A stretch of 64,000 nt of DNA from a virus, in IMG/VR virus record IMGVR_UViG_3300025704_000003, one strand, 5' to 3'. Position numbers and translations under genes: made by a program. The notes under the pieces were generated by a model. It was not told where the DNA came from. It saw only the letters and a list, made by a program, of their open reading frames with translations, and searched no databases. This document shows positions 2,240 through 44,429 of this stretch, piece after piece (position 1 is the stretch's first letter; each line of letters begins with the position of its first letter).

Positions 2240-2658
2240 AAGTAGGATTTACAGCATCCACATTTGATTTACTTCACGCGGGACATGTTGCCATGTTACG
2301 TGAAGCAAAGTCTGTTTGTGACTATTTGATTTGTGGTTTACAAGTAGATCCAACGCTTGATAGACCAAAAAAGAATCAACCTGTTCAATCGATAGTAGAA
2401 AGACAGGCTCAGTTAGCAGCAATAAAATATGTTGATGAGGTAATTATTTATTGTACAGAATCTGATTTATGTGATATAATAAACATGTATCCAATTGATG
2501 TACGTATTCTTGGTGAAGAGTACAGAGATAAAGATTTTACTGGTAAGGATGAGTGTCGCAAACGTGGCATTCAACTTTATTTTAATAAGCGAGACCATAG
2601 GTTCTCGTCGTCTGATTTGAGAAAGAGAGTTCAATATGCAAATGACAGCAGTCCGTGA
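2236..2658 (+). CDS. glycerol-3-phosphate cytidylyltransferase-like (TagD family)
   Basis: FDLLHAGH (HxGH), YVDEV, SSSDLR. Confidence 0.85.
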   Translation: MKVGFTASTFDLLHAGHVAMLREAKSVCDYLICGLQVDPTLDRPKKNQPVQSIVERQAQLAAIKYVDEVIIYCTESDLCDIINMYPIDVRILGEEYRDKDFTGKDECRKRGIQLYFNKRDHRFSSSDLRKRVQYANDSSP

Positions 2659-3319
2659 CATTCGTCAGTATTTTATTGATGAACTAAAAGACGAAGCATA
2701 TACAATTGATAAGACCGGCGCTAAGACAATAGAAATGCTTGGCGCATCTTTTATTGCTGATGAGGCAGCTATCTTTGGAACAGTCAGCTATGATTATGTT
2801 CAAGAAGAATTAGAATGGTATGACAGCCAATCTACAAACATTAATGATATTCGCGAAGTACCTCCAAAAGCTTGGGAGTACGCTGCAAATAAACATGGTG
2901 AAATTAATTCTAATTATGGACATCTTATCTTTTCAGACAAATACTATAATCAATATGGTTGTGTGCTAGATGAATTGTTAGAAAGACCAGACGGCCGGCG
3001 CGCTTCTATGATCTACAATAGGCCGTCTATTTGGTTGGAGTTTAATGAAAATGGAAAATCGGATTTTATTTGTACTAACAGTGTCACTTACTATATTCGT
3101 GATAGCATTCTACATTCTGTAGTTCAGATGCGTTCTAATGATGTTGTCTTTGGATATAAGAATGATTACGCATGGCAACGTGAAGTAATGAGAAGATTAG
3201 TCAGAGATTATAACGGCTTAAGCCTTTATGATGACGGCGCTCAAATCGAAGAAGGTTCTATTACATGGCAAGTACAAAACCTGCACGTCTATGAAAAGCA
3301 CTTCCACCTTGTCAAGTAA
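2636..3319 (+). CDS. 42: dCMP hydroxymethylase (T4 gp42-like)
   Basis: DKTGAKTIEMLGASFIADE, ELEWY, GEINSNYG, DFICTN, MRSNDVVFGYKNDYAWQ and LHVY closely match T4 gp42, including the dCMP-specifying Asp. Confidence 0.88.
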   Translation: MQMTAVRDIRQYFIDELKDEAYTIDKTGAKTIEMLGASFIADEAAIFGTVSYDYVQEELEWYDSQSTNINDIREVPPKAWEYAANKHGEINSNYGHLIFSDKYYNQYGCVLDELLERPDGRRASMIYNRPSIWLEFNENGKSDFICTNSVTYYIRDSILHSVVQMRSNDVVFGYKNDYAWQREVMRRLVRDYNGLSLYDDGAQIEEGSITWQVQNLHVYEKHFHLVK

Positions 3320-3785
3320 GTGGGATCACCGCTATTTGGGATTAGCAAGAGAAGTCTCAAGTTGGTCTAAAGATCCGTCTACTCAGATCGGCGCAATCGC
3401 TGTTGGATCTAAAGGTCAAGTATTAGCTCAGGGTTATAACGGTTTTCCGCGTGGAATTTACGATGGCGATATCCGCTATAATGATAGAAAAACAAAATAT
3501 CAGTTTGTTGTGCACGCAGAACAGAATGTTATATACAATGCCACATATAACGGCGTATCATTAGATCAAGCAACTTTGTATGTGTGGGGTCTTCCTGTCT
3601 GCTCTGACTGCGCAAAAGGTATTATACAGGTAGGCATAACTCGTGTTGTAATGCCTGCTGCCGATTATCCTGATAAGTGGCTGGAATCCTTTGAGCGTAC
3701 AAGCGATATGTTTGGAGAAACTGGAGTTGAATATGAATTTATCGAATGTGATTACGAACCCTATAAGCAATATACCCAAGAATGA
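3291..3785 (+). CDS. cd: dCMP deaminase
   Basis: WSKDPSTQIGA, GYNGFPRG, HAEQN, PVCSDCAK; start uncertain (3291 ATG or 3309 TTG). Confidence 0.9.
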   Translation: MKSTSTLSSKWDHRYLGLAREVSSWSKDPSTQIGAIAVGSKGQVLAQGYNGFPRGIYDGDIRYNDRKTKYQFVVHAEQNVIYNATYNGVSLDQATLYVWGLPVCSDCAKGIIQVGITRVVMPAADYPDKWLESFERTSDMFGETGVEYEFIECDYEPYKQYTQE

Positions 3786-4698
3786 AAAGTCCCACGTGCA
3801 CGGGTGGACTCAACTGTGGCGAGATCAATTAAAAGCTTCTATTGACCACAAATGCACACCTCAAATTAAAAAAGCTGACGTAGTCTATATAGATCATGGG
3901 GCTAATTTTAGTGGTACTTTGAATTTGTTTGGTGGCGCTAACAAAGAAGTATATGACAGAATTAATCTTGTAATGTCATGCGATAACATTGTTTCGTTAG
4001 ATTGGGATATGCCTGATTATGGAGAGATGTTGAAGAAACGACTTGAAGCTCCTACAACATATAAAGGCATCACTCCTATGTGGTGTAATGCTGTCTCTAA
4101 ACGAATTAGAAGTATTACATCCCTCAAGCAGAAGGATCTAAAAACCGATGGCATTACCTTTGGAGATTCACACACAATCGCTTATAGCGGGGCTGGCGAT
4201 CGCGTGTACCGTACTGATGGTAAAACTTTATTTGGAACTATTCGAAAAGGTTTACGATCTGAAATATCGGAATCCATTGGAAAGCTTACATTATGTATGG
4301 GCTCAATTGATATTAGGCATCATGTTTTACGTCATGGCGATTTTTCTCTTAGATATACAATAAAAGAATATGTAAGACAAGGCAACGAATTATCTGACGA
4401 TGTATGGTTTACCGCTCCAGTGCCGGTAGAGTTTGAAGGTAGACGTATACCTAAATCAGGATTTTACAAAAAGACTCCATTCTTTGGTTCATGGAAAGAG
4501 CGGTGGGATCTTACAAACGAATTTATTGACGTGCTTAATGATGAGTCTAAAGGCAAAGTCATTATGCCACCAAAAGAATGGTATACAATGGATCCTGAAA
4601 AATACGCAAATACCTATATGGAACATGGTTCTAGTTTTCATATAGCCCCGCCATATTATAGACGCAACGATTGGGGAGTATCGCCTCTTGCCACATAA
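3733..4698 (+). CDS. putative DNA-base modifying enzyme: BGT-like N-terminal domain plus SGNH-like acyltransferase/hydrolase domain
   Basis: GGAG SD; N-terminal NLFGGAN resembles the T4 BGT NFFGGKPN loop; C-terminal FGDSH, GSIDIRHH and SFH. Confidence 0.45.
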   Translation: MNLSNVITNPISNIPKNEKSHVHGWTQLWRDQLKASIDHKCTPQIKKADVVYIDHGANFSGTLNLFGGANKEVYDRINLVMSCDNIVSLDWDMPDYGEMLKKRLEAPTTYKGITPMWCNAVSKRIRSITSLKQKDLKTDGITFGDSHTIAYSGAGDRVYRTDGKTLFGTIRKGLRSEISESIGKLTLCMGSIDIRHHVLRHGDFSLRYTIKEYVRQGNELSDDVWFTAPVPVEFEGRRIPKSGFYKKTPFFGSWKERWDLTNEFIDVLNDESKGKVIMPPKEWYTMDPEKYANTYMEHGSSFHIAPPYYRRNDWGVSPLAT

Positions 4699-5575
4699 TA
4701 ATCACGTTATTGATAAAATTAATAAAGATATTAATCCGTTTTACGGAGACCCGAAAGAGTACTATTTAGAATTAGCAGAAAACTGGGAGGATCCTTATGG
4801 AATCCCACATATTAGCCGGCATAACAATATTCGTGTTGTCCGTGATGATTTTTTGGTTGGCTCTAAAGTTCGTGGTGGCGATTGCCTCATCAGTAGCCTG
4901 GGCCCTCACATTGATACTATCGTTTACGTTCAACCTCGCACTGGCCTTGCTGGTGTTAGTATACTTGACGTGGCCAAGCGACACGAAAAAGACGTCATGC
5001 TTTTCATGCCCTCCTCAAAACGAATTAGCGATCACCAAGCCTGCTGCATCGAACGAGGGGCTCGTACTAGTTTTCATAGAATAGCAGCTATGCCTAATTT
5101 AAATCTAATTGCAAAGAAATGGGCCGATGAAAGAAAGAATGCTTTCTTTGTTCCGCTAGGTCTTAAGCATGAAATGGTAACGGCAGGCATTGTAAAGACA
5201 GCTTCTAAGATAAAAGAACCTGAAGAAGTATATACTGCCACGTCTACTGGGGTACTTACAAGAGCTTTACAAATCGCGTGGCCTAATGCCAAGTTTACTT
5301 CTGTTTGCGTGTCACGCAATATGAAGGCTGGTGAATTGGGTATTGCAGAGGCAGTATCAGAACCATTAGCGTTTACCGCGGCAGAGAAAAAAGATAATCT
5401 TCCACCATTCCCAACTATAGATACCTACGATGGTAAAGTATGGAAATATATTCCTAAAGATACAAATCGCGATATTCTATTTTGGAATGTAGGGCAGGAA
5501 CCAGTATTACAGAATCAAGCGTTACCAGATACAATAGATTCATATAGAGATTGGGAAAAGAATGTGGCTCAATGA
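4688..5575 (+). CDS. PLP-dependent enzyme (fold type II), similar to DNA-hypermodification PLP enzymes
   Basis: VVRDDFLVGSKVRG (Schiff-base Lys), STGVLTRAL, YDGKVW, LFWNVG. Confidence 0.75.
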   Translation: MPHNNHVIDKINKDINPFYGDPKEYYLELAENWEDPYGIPHISRHNNIRVVRDDFLVGSKVRGGDCLISSLGPHIDTIVYVQPRTGLAGVSILDVAKRHEKDVMLFMPSSKRISDHQACCIERGARTSFHRIAAMPNLNLIAKKWADERKNAFFVPLGLKHEMVTAGIVKTASKIKEPEEVYTATSTGVLTRALQIAWPNAKFTSVCVSRNMKAGELGIAEAVSEPLAFTAAEKKDNLPPFPTIDTYDGKVWKYIPKDTNRDILFWNVGQEPVLQNQALPDTIDSYRDWEKNVAQ

Positions 5576-6578
5576 AGAAGCAATTGATGTTCTTGTAAAT
5601 TATTATTATCCAAAAGCCGGTTGGTTACAAGATAATGTTAATTGGGGTGAATTGGACTATGAAGGTCCAGAAGCAAATAACATTATCAATGATCCTCTTA
5701 TGCAAAAGATTGATATCTACGATTGTAAAACGAGAAATGCTGCAGGCTTCTCAAACGTATTACAAGATCTAAGGTTCGGATCTAAAACTCCTAAGTGGAG
5801 ATGGCAGAAAGAAGATAGACGTAAGATTTCAGCATCAAACGATGATATTAACTGGACTATTGAAACCTGGCTATACACATTTCTTTGTCATCGCATAACT
5901 GGATCAGGGGCTTCATTTGAAAATGACCACGGTTATCGTAATAACATAATTCAACATTGGAGTAAACATAGAGACATTAAAGATATGGCAGAAGATTTAG
6001 CAGAGACTAAAGCTTCAGGCAAACCAATGTTTACGTCTATAGGCAATCAACCTCCGGCTCCAAAGAAAGGAGTTAGTAATGTTGACTTCATGGTAAATGA
6101 ATTGCCTGAAGTTATTAACAGGTTTACAGATTTTCTACTTTTGAAAAAAAGAGGACATAAAGAAATTGTAGATCATTTAAATGAGCATAATAAAAAAGCT
6201 GGTCATCGTAAATTTAATTTTCAGTATGCTGCCTTCTCTATGGATTGTTCTGACTATTTTCCAGAAAATGCTGACGTAGACTCTCATACATATTTAGGTA
6301 ATAACGCAGTAAGGTGCATGAAAAAATTATCAAGTGGGTGGAAGCCAGATAATTTTATGGACTTATTAAGAGAAAAAACTGGTGGTAAACCAAAAGATCT
6401 TGAAGATGTTATGTGTGACTTTGTTAGGTTCGGACAAAACTATGTACCACGTGGAAATGGAACGTTTGATCATATTCCTTCGACATTATCAAATGCATCT
6501 GGATGGGAATCCGGCTGGGAACAAAGACAAGGAATTCCGCCTATGAGGGGTGTACAACTAGATGAATTTATGGTATAA
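5562..6578 (+). CDS. aGPT-Pplase-like (amino acid/amine:DNA transferase family) protein
   Basis: KPMFTS, YLGNNAVRCM and DLEDVMCDFVRF resemble the aGPT-Pplase C-terminal ExxxCE/DF motif; adjacent to the PLP enzyme. Confidence 0.55.
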   Translation: MWLNEEAIDVLVNYYYPKAGWLQDNVNWGELDYEGPEANNIINDPLMQKIDIYDCKTRNAAGFSNVLQDLRFGSKTPKWRWQKEDRRKISASNDDINWTIETWLYTFLCHRITGSGASFENDHGYRNNIIQHWSKHRDIKDMAEDLAETKASGKPMFTSIGNQPPAPKKGVSNVDFMVNELPEVINRFTDFLLLKKRGHKEIVDHLNEHNKKAGHRKFNFQYAAFSMDCSDYFPENADVDSHTYLGNNAVRCMKKLSSGWKPDNFMDLLREKTGGKPKDLEDVMCDFVRFGQNYVPRGNGTFDHIPSTLSNASGWESGWEQRQGIPPMRGVQLDEFMV

Positions 6579-6584
6579 TAAACT

Positions 6585-7436
6585 ATGTTAAAAATTACAA
6601 TCATTGGCCACGGATTTGTTGGCAAGGCAATCGATTACGCATTTCAAGATGACGTAGAAAAACAAATTATCGATCCTAAATATGGGGTCGGTTTAGATGA
6701 TGTATCAATATCTGCTGATGTTACATTTATGTGTCTACCGACTCCAATGCACGAAAATGGACAGTGCGATACGTCTATCGTTGAACAACTTTTAAAGAAA
6801 GTTGCACAACGACGAAGCGGTCTAATAGTTGTTAAATCCACAATACCACCTGATAGAATAGAAAATTTATTCCGTGGTTCTGCTAAACATAGAATGGTTT
6901 ATAATCCAGAATTCTTGACAGAAAAGAATGCCAATGAAGATATTATAAATCCATTCGTACATATCTTTGGTGGCGAAAGCGAAGCTACTGAAAAGCTGGA
7001 AAGAATTTATAAAGAATACAGTATATGTAAACCATGTCCTTCATATCATATGGCAGCAACTGATGCTAGCTTTGTTAAATATGGAATCAATACTTTTCTA
7101 GCAACTAAACTAACATTCTTTAACGAATTTTATGATTCGATAAAAGAGTTCGGAGGTAATTATGGTCGTATCGCAAATGCAATTGGTACTGATCCAAGAA
7201 TTGGGCATGCCCATACTCGTGTCCCTGGCTTTGACGGCAAGCGTGGTTTTGGCGGTGCTTGTTTTCCAAAAGATGTTTCGGCGTTTATAAACTTTACTAC
7301 ACGTATGCCGTTGCTTGAATATGTCATGGATCGTAATAATAAGTATCGATCTGAATATGAAAAAGATGATAGAGAAAAAGAACAAAACATTCAGTATAAT
7401 ATGACTGGCGAAATAGCACATGTGAATGAACGATGA
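6585..7436 (+). CDS. ugd: UDP-glucose/GDP-mannose dehydrogenase family
   Basis: GHGFVG, CLPTP, KSTIPP, NPEFL, GFGGACFPKD. Confidence 0.9.
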   Translation: MLKITIIGHGFVGKAIDYAFQDDVEKQIIDPKYGVGLDDVSISADVTFMCLPTPMHENGQCDTSIVEQLLKKVAQRRSGLIVVKSTIPPDRIENLFRGSAKHRMVYNPEFLTEKNANEDIINPFVHIFGGESEATEKLERIYKEYSICKPCPSYHMAATDASFVKYGINTFLATKLTFFNEFYDSIKEFGGNYGRIANAIGTDPRIGHAHTRVPGFDGKRGFGGACFPKDVSAFINFTTRMPLLEYVMDRNNKYRSEYEKDDREKEQNIQYNMTGEIAHVNER

Positions 7437-8371
7437 AAGTATTCATAACAGGAATAACTGGCTTTATCGGGTTTCATCTGGCCCGTGAGCTTAAAGCTTT
7501 CGGGCATACTATTTTAGGTGTAGATAACTTTAACGCTTATTATGATAAAAACCTAAAAATGGATCGAGCAAAGATTTTAAATGATTCGGCTATACAAACG
7601 TATGCTGATGATATACGGCATTTTAATTACCTTCAAGATTATCTAGATGACGTAGATGTAATTGTTCACTTGGCTGCTTGGGCTGGAGTAAGAAACTCGC
7701 TGGACGATCCGTACACCTATATTGATAATAATATCAATGGAACACAACGAGTAATTGATCAGGCAGAAAAACTTAATATTCCTGTTGTCTATGCTTCTAG
7801 TTCTAGCGTCTATGCAGGACAAGAACCTCCATTTGTTGAGGATATGCAATTCAAGCATCATTTAAATCCTTATGCTTGGACTAAATATGCAAATGAATGC
7901 CAATTTAAAAGCAGTAAATTGCCTTCGTCAATTGGCTTTAGATTTTTTACAGTCTATGGACCTTATGGACGACCTGACATGGCTTTACATGGATTTACAA
8001 ACAATATCATCAAAGGTAGACCAATTGATGTTTATGGCTTTGGCGAAATGTCCCGCGATTTTACCTATGTACAAGACATCGTAAATGGTGTACAATTGTT
8101 AATAGATAAAGTGCTTAGAAGTAAGTCTCACGAAATCTATAACATTGGCAGCGGAAAATCAATTCCGCTTATGAAATTCGTAAATCTTATTGAAGAAAAT
8201 CTAGAACGTAAAGCAGACATTAATTATTGTGATATGCATAAAGCTGACATTCGTCACACATTAGCTGATATATCAGAGATCAAGAAACTGGGTTATAGAC
8301 CTATGACAAATATTGAAACTGGTATTGCTGAATTTGTATCATGGTACAAACAATATTATAACGTAAATTAG
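7433..8371 (+). CDS. NAD-dependent epimerase (UDP-glucuronate 4-epimerase-like)
   Basis: TGITGFIG, HLAAWAGVR, ASSSSVY, YAWTK, RFFTVYGPYGRPDMA. Confidence 0.9.
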   Translation: MKVFITGITGFIGFHLARELKAFGHTILGVDNFNAYYDKNLKMDRAKILNDSAIQTYADDIRHFNYLQDYLDDVDVIVHLAAWAGVRNSLDDPYTYIDNNINGTQRVIDQAEKLNIPVVYASSSSVYAGQEPPFVEDMQFKHHLNPYAWTKYANECQFKSSKLPSSIGFRFFTVYGPYGRPDMALHGFTNNIIKGRPIDVYGFGEMSRDFTYVQDIVNGVQLLIDKVLRSKSHEIYNIGSGKSIPLMKFVNLIEENLERKADINYCDMHKADIRHTLADISEIKKLGYRPMTNIETGIAEFVSWYKQYYNVN

Positions 8372-8382
8372 GAGACACACAT

Positions 8383-9429
8383 ATGTCAGTAATGGACAAA
8401 CTCAAAAAGAATTCTAAGTTAAAAAACACGGAGGTTCTTTCTGAGTCAAAATTCTTTAATGAAAAAGATATGACTCCGACAGATTCGCCAATGATTAACG
8501 TGGCGCTATCTGGATCTGTAGATGGAGGTTTGGCTTCTGGTCTTACAGTTCTTGCAGGTCCTTCAAAGCATTTTAAAACTTCTTTTGCTTTGATTATGGC
8601 AGCAGCATATTTGAAAAAGCATAAAGATGCTGTAATGTTGTTCTATGATTCAGAGTTTGGTTCACCTCAGGCATACTTTGAGCAATTTGAAGTTGATACA
8701 TCTCGTGTTCTTCATACACCAATTACAAACGTAGAAGAACTAAAATTCGATATGATTGGTCAATTAGAATCGTTAGACCGCGGTGATAAAGTAATTGTCG
8801 TCATTGATTCTATTGGCAACCTTGCTTCTAAAAAAGAAATGGAAGATGCACTAAACGAAAAGTCAGTTGCTGATATGTCAAGAGCAAAAGCTCTTAAAGG
8901 ATTGTTCCGTATGGCCACGCCATATCTTGCTATGAAAAACATTCCTATGTTAGCAGTTAATCATACGTACCAAGAAATCGGCTTGTTCCCTAAAGCTATT
9001 GTTTCTGGTGGCACAGGCATTTATTATTCTGCAGATAATATTTGGATCCTTGGTCGTCAGCAAGACAAAAAGGGTACAGAGATTCAAGGGTACCATTTTG
9101 TAATCAATGTAGAGAAATCACGCTATGTTAAAGAAAAATCTAAAATTCCTATTACTGTTTCTTGGGACGGTGGTGTCCGTAAGTATTCTGGTTTGCTCGA
9201 TTGCGCTCTTGCTGGTGGTTATGTTACTAAGCCTTCCAATGGCTGGTATGCTATGGTCGATCAAACTACTGGCGAAGTTGGACCAAAAGTTCGGCACGAT
9301 GCCACTCTCGATCAGTCCTTCTGGGACCCAATCTTTGCTGATACGGATTTTAAAGAGTTCTTGAAAAAGCAATACACGATCGGCCACAGAGAACAAGTAT
9401 CCATGGATGAAATCATTGAGGAAGCATAA
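8383..9429 (+). CDS. uvsX: UvsX RecA-like recombinase
   Basis: AGPSKHFKT, FYDSEFG, DSIGNLASKKE, SGGTG. Confidence 0.96.
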   Translation: MSVMDKLKKNSKLKNTEVLSESKFFNEKDMTPTDSPMINVALSGSVDGGLASGLTVLAGPSKHFKTSFALIMAAAYLKKHKDAVMLFYDSEFGSPQAYFEQFEVDTSRVLHTPITNVEELKFDMIGQLESLDRGDKVIVVIDSIGNLASKKEMEDALNEKSVADMSRAKALKGLFRMATPYLAMKNIPMLAVNHTYQEIGLFPKAIVSGGTGIYYSADNIWILGRQQDKKGTEIQGYHFVINVEKSRYVKEKSKIPITVSWDGGVRKYSGLLDCALAGGYVTKPSNGWYAMVDQTTGEVGPKVRHDATLDQSFWDPIFADTDFKEFLKKQYTIGHREQVSMDEIIEEA

Positions 9430-13500: not shown

Positions 13501-13615
13501 ATACACAGCTTATGGCGAAGACGGACGAGTGATAATTATATCACACAGCCCACGTATAGTCAGGGATTACGCCAAATACGTCATAAATAATCTTGTAAAC
13601 GTTGAAGCAACGTAG
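13472..13615 (+). CDS. small hypothetical protein (47 aa)
   Basis: MYTIVKRKNKYTAYGEDGRVIIISHSPRIV...; fills the gap before the tmRNA. Confidence 0.4.
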   Translation: MYTIVKRKNKYTAYGEDGRVIIISHSPRIVRDYAKYVINNLVNVEAT

Positions 13616-13850
13616 ACACATACTGGACCCGGGGGCGGTACCCGGCAGCTCCACCATAAGTACATAATGTGTATTTTTGATGGGGCTGAAATAGGATCGA
13701 CAGGTGTGAAAGTGACGTGGAGTTTACCGGCTGACTGCGAAATAGGTCAATCACTACAAATGCAAACAATAATTTTGCACCATCTGATTACGCACTAGCT
13801 GCATAATTAAGAGGGCGGCCACTGCCTAGTAACAGAAGTGTGGCGTTTTA
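13594..13850 (+). ncRNA. ssrA: two-piece (circularly permuted) tmRNA; tag peptide ANNNFAPSDYALAA*
   Basis: T-arm CCGGG-GGCGGTA-CCCGG and CAGCTCC-A-CCA (13646-13656) precede the 5' end GGGGCTGAAATAGGATCGAC (13682); G3-U70 Ala pair; tag ORF 13762-13806; outer ends approximate. Confidence 0.93.
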
Positions 13851-14581: not shown

Positions 14582-15352
14582 ATGAAAAATGTTATTCTAG
14601 CCGCAGCCTTTTCCTTGGCTGCTCCTCTCGCAAATGCTACTACAATTGTTAATACCGGATCTGATTCGGGCGGGTTTAAAGCAGTACTAGATATGGTTGG
14701 TACTAAAATCGATCATAATTTTGTACAAGCTGGAAATCCAGTGGTAGCGTCTACCTACTTTGATGGTGGCGATGTGCTCACAATGTGGAGTACAGAATGG
14801 CCAGGTGATTCAGAAATGCCAACAGTGGCAATTGATGATTCAACCATCGTAGCTCTTCAAACATATGAAACAGTAATGTGCAGTCGTACATTCAACTCGG
14901 TTGATGATATGGCAGGTCAGACCGTAAAGGTCGCAACTTGGGGTGGCGTTGATGCTGTAACTAAATTTATTAATGAGTTAGGTGAAGCAAATAATGTAAA
15001 TTTTGAGATTGTTCCATATGAAGGTTCAGGCGGAACAACTCGTGGTTATCTTGCTAATGATGCAGATACTATTTTTACTATTCAAACACGACAAGAAAAA
15101 ATTGAAGCAGACGGAAATTGTTTTGCCTTTAGCGCAAATGGTGATCTAGACTTTGCATTTGTTGATATTATTCTTGCCGTTAATGCATCAGAGGCCGTTG
15201 TATGGCAAGCGCGCGCAGCCGTAGCCGAACTAATGTCAACTGATGAATGGTTGGCAGCATTTGAAGGAACTGAGACTTATGTCGTAAATGATGCAAATGC
15301 AAATATGATTGTTGATAAAGTTAAAGCTGCTGTAGCTCTCAATACTCAATAA
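14582..15352 (+). CDS. periplasmic solute-binding protein (TctC/Bug-like)
   Basis: Signal peptide; GSDSGG, IVPYEGSGG and ADTIF resemble the Bug VPYxGxG motif. Confidence 0.6.
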   Translation: MKNVILAAAFSLAAPLANATTIVNTGSDSGGFKAVLDMVGTKIDHNFVQAGNPVVASTYFDGGDVLTMWSTEWPGDSEMPTVAIDDSTIVALQTYETVMCSRTFNSVDDMAGQTVKVATWGGVDAVTKFINELGEANNVNFEIVPYEGSGGTTRGYLANDADTIFTIQTRQEKIEADGNCFAFSANGDLDFAFVDIILAVNASEAVVWQARAAVAELMSTDEWLAAFEGTETYVVNDANANMIVDKVKAAVALNTQ

Positions 15353-16500
15353 TATTCTATACAAGCTTGTAATTGATTATGGGAAGACCGATATGTTTCG
15401 TACATATCGGTTTTTTCTTTTCCAGATACGAATAATGAAAAATGAAAATCCTGACTTGATAAACAGTATTCTTCCGGTATTACAACACCATCATGCAAAT
15501 GAAAATTTGAAGCAACGCCCGCTCCTTCTACAGATTTATAATCGCCAACACTTTTTATGGTTCCGGCCTTTAACTTAGTTTCTTTCCACAAATGTCTTTT
15601 AAATTCTGGTAAAGGCATTTCTGCAAAGACATTAGGTAAAAATTCATTGTCACATAAATCGTCGTACATAACCATTCCTTGGCCGATACGTGGATTTAAA
15701 TCAATGAATTTAATCGTGTCATCAAAATAATAAAAGTCAGCAACCATTGATAGATTTTTTATTTTAAGTCCGTCTACTAATTTTTGATAGAAATAAGTCA
15801 CGGTATGTTTTATTTTTCCTGGAACTTCATTTGTGGGTATTCCTTCAAATGAGTAATTTCTTGGTTGCCAATGTGTCTCAGTCCTATTATTCACCATTAT
15901 GATGCCTTTACACCAATAGAGAGGCGTGACTCTTCCAGAAGAATTGACATAAGCATAAAGCGCGTATATCTCTGAGTTGTCTGGTAAATGTTCTTGAACC
16001 ATCAATTGATTTTGCGTGTTGTTAAAGTCTTTATCAATCCATGTATTAAAACTTACATGCTTTAACAATTCATCTTTATTTTTAAATGCAGTGTATGGAA
16101 AGTTATGATGCTGATCTTTTGTGCCAGATCCAACAACAGGTTTTACAAAAACAGGTTTATCTCCAAATGCGTTTAGATCTTCAGCATTTTCAGGCAATAC
16201 ACTTTTAGGTGTAATAGTAAACCCTAAAGATCTGGCGTATTCATCCATTTTAAATTTATTAGTAAGTATTTCAACTGACTCTTTTGTTAGGTTATTAATT
16301 CCTAATTGCTGTTCTAATTTGTATTGTAATGGCAGTAAGCTTTCTGACATTGTAAATATTCGATCATAGTTGCCTTCGATCTTTTCAAAATCATCTTCAT
16401 CAGTTATAATAGTTGACTTCTGCTGAAATTTAGCTAACGCTGTTTGAATAGCCTGGCACCGATAATACCCTCGTTTGTATCCTAATATTAAATTATTCAT
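15346..16500 (-). CDS. ATP-grasp domain protein
   Basis: LTNKFKM, VFVKPVVGSGT, MVQEHL, FIDLNPRIGQG. Confidence 0.8.
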   Translation of the reverse strand: MNNLILGYKRGYYRCQAIQTALAKFQQKSTIITDEDDFEKIEGNYDRIFTMSESLLPLQYKLEQQLGINNLTKESVEILTNKFKMDEYARSLGFTITPKSVLPENAEDLNAFGDKPVFVKPVVGSGTKDQHHNFPYTAFKNKDELLKHVSFNTWIDKDFNNTQNQLMVQEHLPDNSEIYALYAYVNSSGRVTPLYWCKGIIMVNNRTETHWQPRNYSFEGIPTNEVPGKIKHTVTYFYQKLVDGLKIKNLSMVADFYYFDDTIKFIDLNPRIGQGMVMYDDLCDNEFLPNVFAEMPLPEFKRHLWKETKLKAGTIKSVGDYKSVEGAGVASNFHLHDGVVIPEEYCLSSQDFHFSLFVSGKEKTDMYETYRSSHNQLQACIEYY

Positions 16501-17756
16501 GTGTATATCGCTATGACTCGTAATAGGTTGTTATAGAATAAATCAGTTAAAAAGAATCCATACAGAATTGGGAACGTTTCCCACTTTCTTATAAGAAATC
16601 CAATTCCAGTTGTGACTATCAGACATGTTATTATCCAAAATTTTATTGGGTATATGTATATGCTCATAACAGAGATGAATACAAAAATGCCAATAATAAA
16701 ATAGTGCTTATATCTTTTATATAGATCCGCAATATATCCTAGTTGATTAAAATACAACCATGATAAAACTAAGCATGCTACTAATACGATTGGAATATAA
16801 TACAATACGTCTTGTAGCATGTAAATGTTTTCTAAATCAAAAGTAAATCCACGAGTAACTACAAGATAATATATTAGTACTTCACTTCCAACAATCGGTA
16901 TTCCTAAAATAATAAGCGGAAGAAGAGAACTTAATGCTCCACTATTATTAGCAGCTTCTGCTGCAGCTATTTTATCTATGTCCTTCTTCATAAAATTAGC
17001 GCTTAGATAGCTGCCTAAAACATTTGTAATTCCAGGAACTAAGCCACACCAAAATCCTACAAAACTACCGGTGGCCGTAGCCTTCCAAGTGCTTAGATCA
17101 TACGCAAACTTTGTAATTTTATTTTTACCAGTAAAATCTTTCTCAGCAAACTTAAGTAACTCAGGGACAATATAGAGACCAATCATAATTGTGCTAAAAG
17201 GTATGCCAAGGGTTAGATATGTAAATCCAAATGTTCCCCATGTTTCTTTTGTCAGATTATCATATCCGATCTTGGCTAATATTCCACCAAGAATAAAAAG
17301 AACTATGGTTTTCCAATAAGCCTGCTTTGTCATTATTGTTAGGAATATAATAGCAATGCTGATAACAATTAATTGAATCGTAGAATTGTAAAATTTAAAT
17401 AACTGAAATATAAATGGAAGTGATATTAGAAATACCACGATTGCAAAAATAGATCCTATCGTACTCGATATTGCGTTACTACTTACCGCATAATGTCCTT
17501 TGCCTTCTAGAAACATTTTATGGCCGTATCTTGCAGTAGTTACAGCTCCTGCATCTCCTGGTATTCCATAAAGAATAGCAGTTACGCTGTTTGTATAGTT
17601 TGATGTAATAAGCAAAGCCACATAAAATATCATAATCCCAATTGGATCAAATGTGGCAAGTATGGGATAAAGTGTGGCAATTGCTAGGAAAGGACCAGCG
17701 CCTGGAATAATGCCAAAGACTGTTCCGGCAAGAATGCCGAATAGCGCATAAATCAA
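16497..17756 (-). CDS. tctA: tripartite tricarboxylate transporter permease TctA-like
   Basis: GIIPGAG, TAILYGIPGD, GLVPG, AAAEAANNSG, LPLIILGIP; many TM helices. Confidence 0.85.
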   Translation of the reverse strand: MIYALFGILAGTVFGIIPGAGPFLAIATLYPILATFDPIGIMIFYVALLITSNYTNSVTAILYGIPGDAGAVTTARYGHKMFLEGKGHYAVSSNAISSTIGSIFAIVVFLISLPFIFQLFKFYNSTIQLIVISIAIIFLTIMTKQAYWKTIVLFILGGILAKIGYDNLTKETWGTFGFTYLTLGIPFSTIMIGLYIVPELLKFAEKDFTGKNKITKFAYDLSTWKATATGSFVGFWCGLVPGITNVLGSYLSANFMKKDIDKIAAAEAANNSGALSSLLPLIILGIPIVGSEVLIYYLVVTRGFTFDLENIYMLQDVLYYIPIVLVACLVLSWLYFNQLGYIADLYKRYKHYFIIGIFVFISVMSIYIYPIKFWIITCLIVTTGIGFLIRKWETFPILYGFFLTDLFYNNLLRVIAIYT

Positions 17757-18409
17757 CTAACTAGTCCAGCGTCCTGCATATATAGAAAAAGATCCTTGTC
17801 AAACGCTAAACAAATCACTAAGATGATTACTCCATCTCGTGTTGAATGAACGCTGTGGCGCTTGTTAGCATTAAAATACCACATTGAACCAGGATTGCAC
17901 TTTACAATTTTATCGTCGTAAATCCATTTAAAATTATATTCATCACAATCGATAAACGCAGTTAGTCTTACTTCATCATATGATAAGTCTGATTTGTTTA
18001 TATCGTGATGATCTGGAAAAAAGCTACCACGGTCCATTCTAAGAAAGTGACAACGCGTTATCCACTGTTTCCATGGTTCGAGCACCTGCGAAAGATGTTC
18101 ACTTTCCGTCCACACACGGGTGGGAGTTGTAATGTCGTGGTTTGCTAATACTTCACCTGTTTGAAGTTCCCAGTCTTTTAAACTTGTGAGATCTGGAATG
18201 CCACTAAGTCCACCATCTAAACTAGTAACACTTAAGCCCCAGCGGTTGTTTGGTTTCTTAGGATTATATCGTACCCAATCATTTTCAAACGGCTTAAGCT
18301 CTTCTTTAATTCTGTTTGCGCTAAATCCGTGAAACTCCTGCCAGTCAGACATGCTCTGGAGTCTGTTCCAATAAATTACTTCTTCTAATCGTTCTTCGCT
18401 AATTGTCAT
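17753..18409 (-). CDS. 2OG-Fe(II) oxygenase (Asp/Asn beta-hydroxylase-like)
   Basis: FFPDHHD (HxD), GSMWYFNANKRHSV. Confidence 0.7.
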   Translation of the reverse strand: MTISEERLEEVIYWNRLQSMSDWQEFHGFSANRIKEELKPFENDWVRYNPKKPNNRWGLSVTSLDGGLSGIPDLTSLKDWELQTGEVLANHDITTPTRVWTESEHLSQVLEPWKQWITRCHFLRMDRGSFFPDHHDINKSDLSYDEVRLTAFIDCDEYNFKWIYDDKIVKCNPGSMWYFNANKRHSVHSTRDGVIILVICLAFDKDLFLYMQDAGLVS

Positions 18410-21127: not shown

Positions 21128-22090
21128 ATGGAACTTGTAACTCTCTGGATGGCCGTCGGATTTTTATTCGCGGCTTATTCAGTTATTGCTAATGATTCTG
21201 TACAGACTCTCGGTACATGGATCGCATCAAACAATGAGAGAGTAAACTGGAAAGTAATGTGGGGATCAGCTTCGGCTGTCTTGCTTTACACCTTATGGTA
21301 CGGTTGGTATATGAATGGAGGCGACATTAGTTATGGTCGTTTAAATAAAATTCCATTCCAAGAAATCCAATGGTATCATGCAATGGCACCAGGTTTATTG
21401 CTAATCTTGACTCGAATAGGCGTACCAGTAAGCACGTCTTTTTTAGTTTTATCTGCATTTGCTTCTACATTTATTTTAGAAAAAATGCTTATGAAATCTA
21501 TGATGGGATATGCAGTCGCTGCAGTAGCGGCATATGCAATATGGATCGTAGTAAGTAAAATATTAGACGAAGCAAAACCTGTTAAAGAAGAACATAAACG
21601 ATATTGGCGAATCGGTCAATGGGTAACTACAGGATTTTTGTGGTTTACATGGCTTTCGCATGATGTAGCTAACATCGCAGTATTCTTACCACGACAAATA
21701 CCGGTCGATCTAATGATTGTCGTTAGTGCAGTCTTCGTACTTGGTCTTTGGTATATGTTCAGAGAAGGTGGTGGTAAAATCCAGCAGATCGTTCTCGAAA
21801 AACATAATACTCGTTATGTAAGATCTGCTACAATTATTGATGGTGTTTATTGGCTTATCTTATTCTTCTTTAAAGAGTTGAATGATATTCCAATGTCAAC
21901 GACATGGGTATTTGTTGGCTTATTGTGTGGACGTGAACTTGCTATGGCTACTGTAACTGGAAAAGAAAAATTCAAAGTGGTATTCCCACTTATTGGAAAA
22001 GACTTTCTGAAAATGATGGTTGGTCTTGCAGCATCAGTCGGTGTTGTATTAGCAATCCATTATGCCATAGTTCCTAACGGACTATACTAG
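21128..22090 (+). CDS. membrane transporter, PiT/PHO4-like (phosphate/sulfate permease-like)
   Basis: IANDSVQTLGT, PVSTS, SHDVAN and PMSTT duplicated PHO4-like motifs; about 9-10 TM. Confidence 0.6.
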   Translation: MELVTLWMAVGFLFAAYSVIANDSVQTLGTWIASNNERVNWKVMWGSASAVLLYTLWYGWYMNGGDISYGRLNKIPFQEIQWYHAMAPGLLLILTRIGVPVSTSFLVLSAFASTFILEKMLMKSMMGYAVAAVAAYAIWIVVSKILDEAKPVKEEHKRYWRIGQWVTTGFLWFTWLSHDVANIAVFLPRQIPVDLMIVVSAVFVLGLWYMFREGGGKIQQIVLEKHNTRYVRSATIIDGVYWLILFFFKELNDIPMSTTWVFVGLLCGRELAMATVTGKEKFKVVFPLIGKDFLKMMVGLAASVGVVLAIHYAIVPNGLY

Positions 22091-22122
22091 TAACATAAAT
22101 GATACACTCTAAATTAATGCGG
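22090..22122 (+). repeat. 33-bp direct repeat B, copy 1
   Basis: GTAACATAAATGATACACTCTAAATTAATGCGG. Confidence 0.92.
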
Positions 22123-22158
22123 CAGAGGCAGCAGTGGCATACGCCACTGCTGCCTAAA
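22118..22158 (+). repeat. 41-bp direct repeat A, copy 2 (perfect 13-bp hairpin)
   Basis: AGGCAGCAGTGGC-ATAC-GCCACTGCTGCCT. Confidence 0.9.
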
Positions 22159-22178
22159 CTTAAGTACAGGAATTTTAA

Positions 22179-23222
22179 TTGAAACCACTACGTAACTTAA
22201 ACTTTGCGCTATCTAATAGATGTAATGCAAAATGTGTTTGGTGCCCTACTTCACGGGGCACTAAACTTGCGTTTGATATGGATGCTGAACTTGTCTATAA
22301 AATTATAGATGAGGTCTCACATCCTGATTTTCCATATGAGATTAAAAATATTCATATGAGTGAGAATGGTGAGGGTCTTTATCATAAAAGTTATGTAGAC
22401 ATTCTCCGTTATATTAAAAAGAATTTGCCCAACACAGAAATTGATATGTTGAGCAACTTTGGCTTAATGTCTAAGAGAATGTCGCGTGTATTACTTGAAG
22501 AGAATCTACTGACCTCTATTCAAGTCAACGTAGATGGGCACAACGATAGAGCATATAGATCGGTAAAAGGGATTAGCTTCTCTTCTGTAATGAAGAATGT
22601 AAAAGAGTTCTTAGAGATCAAAAAAGAACTTGGCGTTGAAATGTTTTTTGGCATTAATGTTATGCCAGCATTTGAATATTCACTAGCTGTGTTTAACGCT
22701 TTTAATAAGAACCCTATCCAACACCCACCCGGCGAATCTGTTCCTTTTAGTTCCTTTGAACTAACACAACAATCTGTATTAGATTATTTGGGCCAAGATT
22801 TGTATGACGAATTGTTTACATTTAGACATAGCAAACCTGGGTTGTGGGCAGAGAGAGAACGATTTAAGACTGGTGAGTTTGCAATCGATGCTGATTTGAA
22901 GTGCCCCTTAATCAAGCGAGTTGAAGAGGAAATGTTTATTGCTCCAAACGGAGATTACTATGTTTGTTGCTTAGATGATAATAACGACAAGGTTCTTGGT
23001 AACCTTAAAGAGAGCACTGTGTTAGAAATCTGGAAGTCTCAAGATCGTATAAACTTTGTTAATAATTTAAAGATGCAAAGGTTCGATAAAATAGGATATC
23101 CATGCAACACTGTTGGTGCTTGTCAAACACTCGGTATAACCGATAATGCCTTACAACGAATGTCTGATACGTATAAAGACGGTGACGAAATAGTATTAGA
23201 GGAAACTTCCGTCGTAAAGTAA
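22179..23222 (+). CDS. radical SAM/SPASM domain protein
   Basis: CNAKCVWC; C-terminal CP...IAPNGDYYVCC...C...C. Confidence 0.9.
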   Translation: MKPLRNLNFALSNRCNAKCVWCPTSRGTKLAFDMDAELVYKIIDEVSHPDFPYEIKNIHMSENGEGLYHKSYVDILRYIKKNLPNTEIDMLSNFGLMSKRMSRVLLEENLLTSIQVNVDGHNDRAYRSVKGISFSSVMKNVKEFLEIKKELGVEMFFGINVMPAFEYSLAVFNAFNKNPIQHPPGESVPFSSFELTQQSVLDYLGQDLYDELFTFRHSKPGLWAERERFKTGEFAIDADLKCPLIKRVEEEMFIAPNGDYYVCCLDDNNDKVLGNLKESTVLEIWKSQDRINFVNNLKMQRFDKIGYPCNTVGACQTLGITDNALQRMSDTYKDGDEIVLEETSVVK

Positions 23223-23251
23223 CATAAATGATACACTCTAAATTAATGCGG
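23219..23251 (+). repeat. 33-bp direct repeat B, copy 2 (continues into hairpin to 23269)
   Basis: Identical to 22090-22122. Confidence 0.92.
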
Positions 23252-23270
23252 TTAACGCCGCATTAATTTA

Positions 23271-23299
23271 TGTACAAACGATTTAACATGTGGTAGAAA
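23271..23299 (+). promoter_or_regulatory. early promoter (TGTACA-N17-TAGAAA, TG extension)
   Basis: Repeated promoter family. Confidence 0.65.
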
Positions 23300-23327
23300 G
23301 GTTATATCAGTCAAAAAGGAGAAATAC

Positions 23328-23543
23328 ATGACTTATACACTTATTAACCCATCTAACTACAATCAACCACTATCTTTCAACACTATTCCCGAAATCATTA
23401 AATATATCAAATCACTTAAACTTCCATCTACTACCGATTTTCTAATCTTCCCTCCTCATAACCCTCAAACCACTATCTTTTTCAATCTAACACTTTCACA
23501 ACTTATTAAAACTTACAAAAACAATCCAAACGAATTATTGTAA
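23328..23543 (+). CDS. hypothetical early protein with an almost G-free coding strand
   Basis: AAGGAG SD and own promoter; only 5 G in 216 nt. Confidence 0.75.
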   Translation: MTYTLINPSNYNQPLSFNTIPEIIKYIKSLKLPSTTDFLIFPPHNPQTTIFFNLTLSQLIKTYKNNPNELL

Positions 23544-23572
23544 TATAAATGATACACTCTAAATTAATGCGG
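23540..23572 (+). repeat. 33-bp direct repeat B, copy 3 (one mismatch; hairpin plus T-tract)
   Basis: GTAATATAAATGATACACTCTAAATTAATGCGG. Confidence 0.92.
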
Positions 23573-23591
23573 CTTTAACCGCATTTTTTTA

Positions 23592-23620
23592 TGTACATCT
23601 CGTTAAAAGTATGGTAGTAT
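23592..23620 (+). promoter_or_regulatory. early promoter (TGTACA-N17-TAGTAT)
   Basis: Repeated promoter family. Confidence 0.75.
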
Positions 23621-23643
23621 GGTTACATGCTAAGGAGAATAGT

Positions 23644-23829
23644 ATGATTATAGTAAGAGACCTACACGATGCACTTGTAATGAAGAATAAGCTTGCAAGC
23701 GTACTTCGCCGCTCGAATACGTTTAACATGTCTAAGTCAGACATTCAAGTTGAACTCGATATGATTATCGAAGATCTCATAAAAAACATTGATCGTGAAG
23801 AGCGTAACCTCCAAGCGGAGGTATTATAA
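23644..23829 (+). CDS. hypothetical protein
   Basis: AAGGAG SD. Confidence 0.7.
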   Translation: MIIVRDLHDALVMKNKLASVLRRSNTFNMSKSDIQVELDMIIEDLIKNIDREERNLQAEVL

Positions 23830-24071
23830 TGTACACGACCCGGACATCTGATTCGTATATAGCAACTTTTAGTGATTGTCAAGATCCTCAAATTGCTGAT
23901 CTTAGATCCTTCGTATCTAAGTGTAACAGAATGCTGAAAGAGGACGGTAAGTACCAACGGTACTATCTCAAACTTCAAGCACGTGGTCATCGCCGCGGCG
24001 TTCGCCGGTACAACCAGTCATTACCTCTCAAGTATGCCGACAGAGTCGATGCGTACATTTATGAGAGATAG
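23829..24071 (+). CDS. hypothetical protein
   Basis: GGAGG SD, TAATG coupling. Confidence 0.75.
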   Translation: MYTTRTSDSYIATFSDCQDPQIADLRSFVSKCNRMLKEDGKYQRYYLKLQARGHRRGVRRYNQSLPLKYADRVDAYIYER

Positions 24072-42210: not shown

Positions 42211-42430
42211 CTTGCGTACAGAATACGAAGAAATTATTCGCCGATATAGGATTCCAGATGAGTATAAGAATAGTAGTATAGATAGTCTAGTATGGTTCCA
42301 AGAGAACGGTAAAGGATCTAATCGTCTGCGAACTAAATATGAACGTGCAAATGAAATTGCAAATATTATTTTGAAAGAGTCTAGTTATGAAAAGAGTAAT
42401 CTATCAAGTCTACGTAGGAAAACGCTCTAG
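42182..42430 (+). CDS. hypothetical protein
   Basis: ORF from MNISLASLL; start uncertain. Confidence 0.5.
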   Translation: MNISLASLLNLRTEYEEIIRRYRIPDEYKNSSIDSLVWFQENGKGSNRLRTKYERANEIANIILKESSYEKSNLSSLRRKTL

Positions 42431-43184
42431 GCTTTACGATCACTGTATTGAATCTGTAAAACAATATTGTAAAGAACACAATATTGAACACGTGGTTCAG
42501 AAACAACCTATTCTTCGAATTAAGCCGGACGTATTTGCTACTAATCGTAGTAAAGAGTCGTATGAAAAACATGGTGGTTTCCTTCCAATATTTGAGAAGG
42601 AAAACGCCTTTACGTATTTGAAGACCAATGATCAAGTTGCTATTATCGATGCTGATATTTGGATTCGTCCAGGAGCTCCTAATATTTTTGATAAGGTACC
42701 AGAAGAGTATGATTTTGGTGGAGTACTAGAACGTGACATGCCAGTCACCTCGCAGTATTTACGTAAGATTGCTAACTACTCTCGTATGCAATATGGTATG
42801 ACGCCAATTAATCAACTATTTGATTGGAAACATCCTAGCGGAGCTGGAGCAGACTTTTATAATATGGGCATGATGGTTCTAAATAAAGGTTTTCAAAAAT
42901 ACCTTAAAGGCCAAACACCTCAACAGTTTTTAATGCGGCCTGAGTTCAAAGCCTTTATCGATGGAATGGGTAATTGGAAATGGTCGACCGATCAAACCCT
43001 TCTCAATGTCTTTGTAAAAGAAAGCGGGATGAACGTAAAGAACCTGACATTCCATTGGAATGGTTTATTTACTGGAATTGATGCAGGCCGTGTTAAAGAA
43101 TGTAATTTCGTACACTTCTTTCTAAAAGATAAGCTTCCTAATCGTGGCGAAAACGTAGAGGAGCTTATGACATATGTTGATTGA
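42387..43184 (+). CDS. GT-A glycosyltransferase (nucleotide-diphospho-sugar transferase)
   Basis: IIDADIW, YNMG, DQTLLN, FVHF. Confidence 0.8.
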   Translation: MKRVIYQVYVGKRSRLYDHCIESVKQYCKEHNIEHVVQKQPILRIKPDVFATNRSKESYEKHGGFLPIFEKENAFTYLKTNDQVAIIDADIWIRPGAPNIFDKVPEEYDFGGVLERDMPVTSQYLRKIANYSRMQYGMTPINQLFDWKHPSGAGADFYNMGMMVLNKGFQKYLKGQTPQQFLMRPEFKAFIDGMGNWKWSTDQTLLNVFVKESGMNVKNLTFHWNGLFTGIDAGRVKECNFVHFFLKDKLPNRGENVEELMTYVD

Positions 43185-43863
43185 TAAAAAGATTTTTGTG
43201 CACATTCCAAAAAATGCTGGAATGACAATTCGCCATAGTCCATTCTTAAAAGATAAGATTATGGTTAATGGAGCACAAACACACAAAAGCCGAGAATATA
43301 CTCAAGAGCTTTTAGACACTATGGCCATGACAGGAGATCATCATGGAATTGAGCATGCACGCTGGCGAGACCTTAATCCAACATACACAAGCAGATTTGG
43401 TGCTTTTGCTGTTGTTAGGAACCCTTGGGATCGTGTCGTTAGTCGTTACTTTTTCGCGAAAAAAGTTATCGAAGTTGAAAAGAAAAGTCCAGCATCATAT
43501 GCAGACGTTTCTAGCTTTGATGCCTTTTTAGAGGAACGTCACAATTGGGGTAACCATCCGTTTATGTGGCATCGCGCCGTGCGTGGATGGTATCCTGCAG
43601 TAGATCATGTAACAGATGAACAAGGTAATCTTAAATGCGATATGATCCGCTTTGAAAATTTAAATGAAGATCTTATATCATACTTCAATATTCCTACAAT
43701 GTCTCGCGCAAGAAATGTTACAGCCTTAAATAAAGGTACATACATGGATATGTACACTGATAAGACTAAACAAATCATTGCTGACTGGTATGCAAAAGAT
43801 ATCGATATGTGGGGATTCGACTTTGATACAGGAGCAACAAAAAATGTTTGGGCGCTAAGATGA
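43174..43863 (+). CDS. sulfotransferase (Sulfotransfer_2 family)
   Basis: FVHIPKNAGMTI, VRNPWDRVVS, RFENL. Confidence 0.85.
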   Translation: MLIDKKIFVHIPKNAGMTIRHSPFLKDKIMVNGAQTHKSREYTQELLDTMAMTGDHHGIEHARWRDLNPTYTSRFGAFAVVRNPWDRVVSRYFFAKKVIEVEKKSPASYADVSSFDAFLEERHNWGNHPFMWHRAVRGWYPAVDHVTDEQGNLKCDMIRFENLNEDLISYFNIPTMSRARNVTALNKGTYMDMYTDKTKQIIADWYAKDIDMWGFDFDTGATKNVWALR

Positions 43864-44429
43864 TTCGTCTAGAAGCCCCAGTTAAAACGTTTACCGACCT
43901 AGAACATTTTTACAATGCACTTGTAGAACGTCAAACAGAGGCTCATGGCGATGAGTACGTTGCTCATCATAATATAATTAGAGACAAAGCAAAAGACTGT
44001 AAGTCGTATCGTGAGTTAGGTGTTATGCAAGGAGCGACGGCTGCAGCGGCAGCCTTAGCCGGTTATGAATATTTAGAACTTATCGATACGCATCCTAAAC
44101 CATTTATGGAATATGAATCTTTATTTAAAAAATACAATTATAAGTTAATTGTAGACAGTTCAACAAATTTGATTATCGAAGACCGGCCGTTTGTTGATTT
44201 TCTTTTAATAGATTCAAATCACAAGCCAGCTCATTTGCGTAAAGAATTAGAAATACATCCCCAAAAAGTAAACAAATATATATTATTTCACGACACATTT
44301 GCTGTCAAAAAATTACAAGATGTTATAGATGAGTTTGTGAAAAAAAATTATACTGATTGGGCATTAGTAGAATATTATCAGGAAAATGTTGGATATACAT
44401 TAATTAAAAGGATTGGCAATGCTAGGTAA
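43860..44429 (+). CDS. class I SAM methyltransferase (Methyltransf_24-like)
   Basis: ELGVMQG, LLIDSNH, ILFHDT. Confidence 0.75.
   Translation: MIRLEAPVKTFTDLEHFYNALVERQTEAHGDEYVAHHNIIRDKAKDCKSYRELGVMQGATAAAAALAGYEYLELIDTHPKPFMEYESLFKKYNYKLIVDSSTNLIIEDRPFVDFLLIDSNHKPAHLRKELEIHPQKVNKYILFHDTFAVKKLQDVIDEFVKKNYTDWALVEYYQENVGYTLIKRIGNAR

Follow-up and report, generated by a model that had tools for sequence, protein, structure and literature searches.

A nearly guanine-free early gene of a marine T4-like phage, kept so by selection on the nucleic acid

Small early genes of T4-type phages are reportedly carried on promoter-early stem-loop (PeSL) cassettes, which Arbiol et al. are said to have described in 2010: small early open reading frames (ORFs) of the plastic genome regions, flanked by repeated stem-loop and early-promoter modules and shuffled by recombination. 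In target-site avoidance a feature recognised by an enemy is removed through synonymous choice and the protein stays functional; messages without ACA resist MazF, and phage genomes avoid restriction sites. Ugi and other small phage proteins inhibit DNA glycosylases. In a B. subtilis reporter assay, stretches of more than 150 nt with an excess of C over G were nearly always terminated by Rho, and coding strands have a purine bias through which Rho is avoided (Dierksheide et al. 2026, PMC13323073). Here we describe a gene of 71 codons (23328..23543, + strand) with only five guanines in its coding strand. It lies in IMG/VR record IMGVR_UViG_3300025704_000003 from an uncultured marine T4-like phage, of which a stretch of 64,000 nt (64 kb) was analysed, referred to below as the window.

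The nearest concepts are PeSL cassettes, motif avoidance and Rho-related strand bias, and each of them covers one aspect of this gene only. The PeSL concept deals with gene movement and not with the loss of one nucleotide, and no base-free PeSL gene has been described. Compared with target-site avoidance, a whole nucleotide is removed instead of a motif of 3-6 nt, at the cost of six amino acids. In full-text literature searches no account of guanine-free phage genes came up. A natural gene held to a three-letter alphabet by selection, and paying six amino acids for it, would represent a new kind of sequence constraint.

The gene was defined from composition statistics, homologues, dN/dS and an AlphaFold2 model. 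Its 216 nt consist of 81 A, 70 T, 60 C and 5 G. The five G are found in the start ATG (23330), in GAA of E22 (23391), in GAT of D37 (23436), in GAA of E69 (23532) and in TTG of L71 (23540), and this recount is identical in number and position to that of the preliminary description. For 216-nt stretches of the window the mean is 44.3 G (sd 7.9), and nowhere in the 64 kb except at this ORF does a count of 15 or fewer per 216 nt occur for any of the four bases. Among the 105 ORFs of at least 50 amino acids (aa) the G fraction has a mean of 0.216 (sd 0.035), which agrees with the earlier remark that the neighbours are about one-fifth G; the next-lowest value is 0.150 and that of the gene is 0.023. 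Its C fraction of 0.278 is the top value of the same set. At two-fold NNY codons, where G is no option, C is used in 45-55% of cases in the gene versus a background of 25-27%.

G is missing at synonymous and at non-synonymous sites. Only one avoidable synonymous G is seen where 8.7 are expected from the amino acid sequence and the codon usage of the window (P(<=1)=6e-4; P(0)=5e-5), and since this lone G (23540) is the first base of a flanking 89-nt repeat that starts with GTAA, it belongs to the flank. Residues that require G make up 3 of 70 in the product versus 43% in the genes of the window (P=2e-13), and Gly, Ala, Val, Arg, Trp and Cys are absent, the same six that had been listed as missing before. 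A sliding-window scan for G, which the preliminary description had proposed, locates the depletion at this one place in the 64 kb and likewise in a relative of 152 kb.

This relative (G001, 151.7 kb, 83% complete) served as a whole-genome test of uniqueness, and the gene is its only base-poor region, with 3 G per 216 nt versus 43.3 +/- 7.3 and 17 in the next-lowest stretch. Five relatives at 69-97% identity were found by a word-indexed search of 5.8 billion proteins and 14 more loci by a scan of IMG/VR. The distinct homologues number about 14 and are 66-97% identical. All of them come from marine samples, including TARA, and their contigs are T4-like, with gp32, UvsX and baseplate genes aboard. 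Each copy contains 2-5 G in its 210-216 nt, and no second depleted spot occurs at any of the loci; normal G content, which would have spoken against the earlier proposal, was found in none of them at either class of sites. In 80 loci (1.09 Mb) around marine gp42 homologues no other stretch with four or fewer of any base per 150 nt was present. The DNA of the region and a tblastn search with the 71-aa protein gave no match, near or distant, in 50,697 phage records, so no cultured relative there carries the gene.

Pairwise dS reaches 1.5, synonymous sites are saturated, dN/dS lies between 0.06 and 0.33, and the variable alignment columns are distributed 29/17/50 over codon positions 1/2/3. G is ever present in only 7 of the 96 variable columns. 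Replacements are confined to the G-free codon set, with no Lys-to-Arg, Ile-to-Val or Ser-to-Ala, and G is brought in solely by Asp and Glu and, in the most divergent clade, by Val and a second Met. The exclusion of G although synonymous sites are saturated and dN/dS is low shows that the ORF encodes a real protein under purifying selection, and that selection on the nucleic acid itself bars G from its coding strand, as the preliminary description had suspected from a single sequence. G is retained only where it is unavoidable, that is in the start codon, in a few Asp and Glu codons, in the Shine-Dalgarno sequence and in the flanking cassette.

The same data bear on the possibility that nothing acts on the nucleic acid, and that an odd protein composition or a local mutational bias accounts for the lack of G. 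Residues that can be encoded without G, namely Asn, Thr, Pro, Leu and Ile, are indeed abundant in the protein. However, the synonymous sites avoid G too, significantly so in the one sequence and in the same way in all homologues, and the protein is under clear purifying selection. A mutational cause is unlikely because the depletion stops sharply at the ORF borders and because C, the base lost by deamination, is enriched and not depleted. We therefore regard an origin without selection on the nucleic acid as hardly credible.

AlphaFold2 with six input sequences predicts a beta-beta-alpha-beta-beta-alpha domain for the product (predicted local distance difference test, pLDDT, 85.4; predicted template modelling score, pTM, 0.74). 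No fold match beyond chance was obtained, the best Foldseek E values being 0.16 in the PDB and 0.025 in BFVD and the best VIA Z-score 4.4. Searches of Pfam, PHROGs and the ESM Atlas features assigned no family to it, and a HMMER profile pass over 1.8 billion representative proteins returned only the gene's own family; two long repetitive matches to the profile were of low complexity and were discarded. By this model the product is a folded protein without a known fold, and the predicted fold would mean that 14 kinds of amino acid suffice for a protein to fold.

The phage was earlier taken for one that modifies cytosine, and its genes bear this out. The ORF at 2636..3319 (+) matches the T4 gp42-type dCMP hydroxymethylase (E=1.7e-71 to PDB 1B49), with 52-55% identity to gp42 of T-even phages. 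It keeps the catalytic Cys (FICTN) and the cytosine-specifying Asp (NDYAWQ), a site that reads NNYAWQ in deposited D179N mutants. Judged by this enzyme the phage is predicted to make 5-hydroxymethylcytosine (hmC) DNA. The relatives G001 and G005 also carry gp42. Near the gp42 homologue are genes for dCMP deaminase, ThyX, KdsA-like and KdsB-like proteins, a UDP-sugar dehydrogenase and an epimerase, with glycosyltransferases further on, and the hmC probably carries a sugar. The regions 265-9429 and 42387-47631 contain the KdsA-like (DAHP_synth_1) and KdsB-like (CTP_transf_3) proteins, the dehydrogenase and the epimerase, and in addition three proteins of about 300 aa without assignment, two GT25 glycosyltransferases, a sulfotransferase-like protein and a methyltransferase; this set may direct a sugar-acid hypermodification of hmC not described before. 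FolE, the first enzyme of the deazaguanine pathway, was not found in the 83%-complete G001 by a search that does find it in two deazaguanine phages, and the Pfam TGT model had no match in the relatives, a negative of little weight, as this model misses DpdA3 even in CP220.

With C replaced by modified C, a G-free coding strand leaves next to none of the modified base in the template strand. The preliminary description had proposed that such a C-free template allows immediate reading by the host RNA polymerase. In its literal form, in which a bulky modified template C slows or blocks the unmodified host enzyme and a pioneer factor needs a C-free template, this idea is very improbable. The hmC together with the many sugar-nucleotide and glycosyltransferase genes would allow C to bear an unusually large group. 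But glucosyl-hmC DNA of T4 is transcribed by the host polymerase and T4 has no G-poor gene, neighbouring early genes with the same type of promoter have ordinary G, the leader of the gene itself has template C, and modifications at C5 are generally held not to touch the pairing face. In a modified form, with the template safe from base excision, the idea is the one we rank first.

We tentatively favour, as possible rather than probable, that the template strand is immune to base-excision defences that remove modified bases. Brig1 excises glucosyl-hmC (PMC11078745), Brig3 excises hmC (PMC13160076) and Dag1/Dag2 excise 7-deazaguanines (bioRxiv 10.1101/2025.10.29.685425). These glycosylase defences have single-base specificity and are described as hampering transcription, replication or both (PMC11078745, PMC13160076, bioRxiv 10.1101/2025.10.29.685425), and impeded transcription is among the effects that the authors expected for Brig1 (PMC11078745). 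The mechanism that we infer from this is as follows. Host glycosylases of this kind attack one base at a time, whichever strand it is on, and the result is an abasic site or a nick. In the G-free gene all modified C is on the non-template strand, and every excision lesion would fall there, so that lesions could neither block the polymerase nor pair into breaks: closely opposed lesions would be impossible within the gene and no double-strand break would arise, the template would remain intact, and attacked DNA could still yield this one protein. The product would in that case serve as a first response, for instance by inhibiting the attacking enzyme in the way that Ugi inhibits uracil-DNA glycosylase. 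The comparison with Ugi-type inhibitors holds in that a small early protein of a phage with non-canonical DNA would be needed before host base excision destroys the genome. It fails in that there is no similarity in sequence or fold and that the 71-aa protein is not an acidic DNA mimic.

The idea was examined on the published genomes of T4, CP220, phi3ST:2, SPO1, phiVC8 and vB_FspM_immuto_2-6A. The last of these, in which G is fully replaced by fdPreQ1 (PMC10516641), contains exactly one base-poor gene. This gene, immuto26A_128 (MW353175, 68330-68686, +), has 5 C in the 357 nt of its coding strand and no C in its best 150-nt stretch, in a genome with 15% C, and it is the only base-poor stretch of the 160-kb genome. 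Since its coding strand is C-poor, the template strand is almost free of modified G. As in our phage, a single small base-poor gene is present in an aquatic myovirus of about 160 kb with fully substituted DNA, and the base lacking from the template strand is the substituted one. In contrast, the gene is the C-poor mirror image of ours, the protein, which has 118 aa and is strongly acidic, is unrelated, and the host is Flavobacterium. Thus in both genomes with a base-poor gene (2/2) the transcribed strand appears to lack the base that the phage substitutes, which is suggestive only.

Several points weigh against protection from base excision. A match of missing and modified base in 2/2 is expected by chance in 1 of 4 cases with only two positive cases, and these differ in host lineage, which confounds the comparison. 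No base-poor gene is present in T4 (glucosyl-hmC), where no 216-nt stretch has fewer than 15 G or 19 C, in Campylobacter phage CP220, in which G is fully replaced by dADG, in Cellulophaga phage phi3ST:2 of the phiST group, for which the modification is inferred and not measured, or in SPO1 (5-hydroxymethyluracil, hmU) and phiVC8 (2-aminoadenine, Z). Because these five phages with substituted DNA do without such a gene, it is not a general companion of modified DNA. Within the window, about 12 of the 57 nt of promoter and 5' leader are G, which is ordinary and no fewer than in the neighbouring cassette copy, so the transcription unit is only about 6-fold less exposed and not immune. The 71-aa protein is not acidic, unlike the known DNA-mimic inhibitors of glycosylases. 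Finally, a message without G and a template without C are one and the same feature of the sequence, from which alone a cause at the DNA level cannot be told from one at the RNA level.

Whatever the cause, it has to explain a cost for each G in the message, or each C in the template, that purged the synonymous sites and six amino acids and that is limited to one early gene. Something in the infected cell thus charges a price per G or per template C. If base excision is the cause, genes of this kind would flag from the sequence alone which base a phage modifies, and would point to counter-defence proteins, possibly including a new family of glycosylase inhibitors. In the widest version, which we regard as doubtful, one-base-free genes would form a general class of defence-proof first-response genes, of which a fully substituted phage keeps one or a few among its early genes, G-free in hmC phages and C-free in 7-deazaguanine phages, that stay transcribable and free of double-strand breaks while glycosylases of the Brig or Dag type destroy the remaining genome, and whose products inhibit those defences. 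A cause in the RNA or among the nucleotides of the pool would make the gene the marker of a so far unrecognised immune mechanism of abundant marine bacteria that is specific for G. In both cases the native gene and a synonymously G-recoded version are a ready-made experimental handle.

The few G that remain have a distinct context. The internal ones at 23391, 23436 and 23532 are all within CGA, as had been pointed out before, and the remark holds statistically when the homologues are included: the base before a residual G is C in 27/46, T in 15/46, G in 4/46 and A in 0/46. The C in front of G is reached via the rare codons CCC, TCC and ACC. That residual G lie mostly in CpG suggests that the sequence context matters. 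Two lineages gained a new G codon in combination with a change from T to C immediately 5' of it. A CmdT-like attack on GA dinucleotides was considered and ruled out, as the retained G sit precisely in GA.

The phage encodes a permuted transfer-messenger RNA (tmRNA) at 13550-13847 (+), with 106 bits to Rfam RF01849 and 126 bits to RF04321, for which ARAGORN reads the tag ANNNFAPSDYALAA. As this tmRNA is of alphaproteobacterial type, the host is probably an alphaproteobacterium. Its presence hints that broken messages matter during infection.

A different cause, which the preliminary description had also proposed, would be that the message shuns G to escape a G-directed attack on RNA, either by an endoribonuclease (RNase T1/barnase-like, MqsR-like or RelE-like) or by an RNA-modifying toxin, in which case the product is perhaps an antidote. 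All the evidence for selection fits this equally well, and ACA-less messages escaping MazF are a precedent in kind. Moreover, most of the G that remains in the transcript would be shielded, in the ribosome-bound Shine-Dalgarno sequence, the start codon and the paired stem of the terminator, and the phage's own tmRNA would rescue ribosomes on broken messages. Nevertheless, Pfam scans found no G-specific RNase or toxin among the ORFs of the window, the residual GAA and GAU codons are exposed in unstructured RNA, and an attack on RNA gives no reason to expect that the missing base pairs with the modified one. We consider this explanation rather unlikely.

The transcript also needs little GTP. Up to the stop codon about 9 G have to be incorporated instead of about 50, and the gene is short, early and adjoins its promoter, which would suit transcription without GTP, a further proposal of the preliminary description, be it under GTP scarcity or in the presence of chain-terminating GTP analogues such as the ddhGTP of prokaryotic viperins. 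Bernheim et al. reportedly described ddhCTP, ddhGTP and ddhUTP as viperin products in 2021, and such products are said to be inherently specific for a single nucleotide. Selection against each G at synonymous sites fits a hazard at each incorporation. On the other hand, T4-like phages use the host RNA polymerase, which an analogue made by the host must largely spare, translation consumes far more GTP than the transcript saves, and the leader still requires G. No viperin or GTP-depleting system was identified, and the link to the modified base would be a coincidence, all of which makes this cause quite unlikely.

As RNA the ORF is extreme in several respects. Its minimum free energy (MFE) is -1.9 kcal/mol versus -45.6 +/- 8.7 for 198 other 216-nt stretches, it contains 35 YC dinucleotides versus 16.5 +/- 5.7, and within 78-nt windows the ratio of C to G goes up to 28. 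The ORF RNA is thus predicted to be unable to fold. In the MFE fold the Shine-Dalgarno sequence pairs with a conserved CCUCCU (codons for Phe-Pro-Pro-His) through 5 bp over a 130-nt loop; this pairing was rejected, being short and absent from the most divergent homologue.

These values match the published signature of Rho targets (PMC13323073). Rho utilisation (rut) regions are likewise C-rich, G-poor and unstructured RNA of more than 150 nt (C 27.8%, G 2.3% here; PMC13323073). Together with the C enrichment at NNY codons, the presence of Rho in the likely host class, the alphaproteobacteria, and the genes that follow directly 3' of the G-free gene in the most divergent clade, this is in favour of selection on a bulk property of the RNA and not on each G, giving either a message that is unstructured and covered by ribosomes, or a sensor or decoy of the translation status that responds to Rho. 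However, unlike a rut region in ribosome-free RNA, the stretch lies inside an efficiently translated ORF with a strong Shine-Dalgarno sequence and under purifying selection. It is followed by an intrinsic terminator, and as the gene is translated and has a terminator of its own, Rho would be left without anything to regulate. The G depletion also far exceeds what Rho binding needs: a bulk property would tolerate a handful of G, but nearly every avoidable G was purged over dS>1. Six amino acids are a high price for less RNA structure, and no other gene is found at an intermediate state. A bulk property of the RNA is therefore an unlikely cause.

The anatomy of an early gene, which had been noted before, was found in full, with a promoter-like site, AAGGAG and a downstream hairpin with a T-run (23566-23592). 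A repeat search located an upstream copy of an 89-nt stem-loop and early-promoter cassette at 23219..23307 (+), PeSL-like and with its hairpin at about 23245-23264, which begins at the stop codon of the preceding radical-SAM gene. In this copy a conserved motif resembles a sigma-70-type early promoter (23271..23299, +), with TGTACA as -35-like element, N14 and TGGTAGAAA as extended -10-like element. The Shine-Dalgarno sequence AAGGAG (23316..23321, +) lies 6 nt 5' of the ATG, is conserved as GGA(G/A) in the homologues and holds 3 of the roughly 4 G of the 5' leader. The downstream copy (23540..23628, +), identified by repeat, hairpin and motif searches, contains an intrinsic-terminator-like hairpin (23566-23585, +, hairpin search) with a T-run to 23592 and the promoter-like site of the next small gene (TGTACA at 23592-23597 and TGGTAG at 23612-23617, +).

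In all, the module is present in three copies (22090-22178, 23219-23307 and 23540-23628) that are 63-100% alike, and each copy starts with GTAA, at three successive stop codons. The promoter-like motif has the form TGTACA-N14-TGGTAG(A/T)A(A/T) and is conserved across all aligned homologues, with TGTACA and AAAGGT invariant. In the window its relaxed form occurs 7 times versus 0.17 expected and its strict form 3 times versus 0.04 expected.

The loci of the homologues show at least four different gene neighbourhoods. No conserved neighbour was found across all clades, so the gene has no operon partner. One relative, P0006 (locus L012), is the N-terminal half of the gene, still G-poor and cut exactly at an inserted stem-loop/promoter module; this metagenome contig (L012, 177-208 and 385-416) shows truncation of the G-free gene via recombination at the module. 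The module copies on both flanks of the gene, the varied neighbourhoods and the relative truncated at a module are what PeSL cassettes would show, and by this organisation the gene appears to be a monocistronic early accessory gene on a mobile promoter-gene-hairpin cassette of the PeSL type.

A marine metatranscriptome contains one contig of 153 nt that is 100% identical and covers 23332-23482 inside the ORF; as a contig only, it shows presence in an RNA library and not transcription, its level or its ends. The next small early gene (23644-23845, +) is likewise met in RNA libraries, with contigs X6 and X9 from two independent studies that extend from its ATG at 23644 to about 23845.

A protein of about 96 aa is encoded 3' of the G-free gene in 7/12 loci, which belong to the two most divergent clades (for example L001 10702-10992 and L010 2151-2426). 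It is missing from the locus in the window and may be a marker of the ancestral neighbourhood. On the upstream side the G-free gene adjoins a radical SAM/SPASM protein (21128-23222, +). The phage further encodes a TctA tricarboxylate transporter subunit, a PHO4-like protein and a second radical-SAM protein (15346-18409, - strand, and 54128-54913, + strand).

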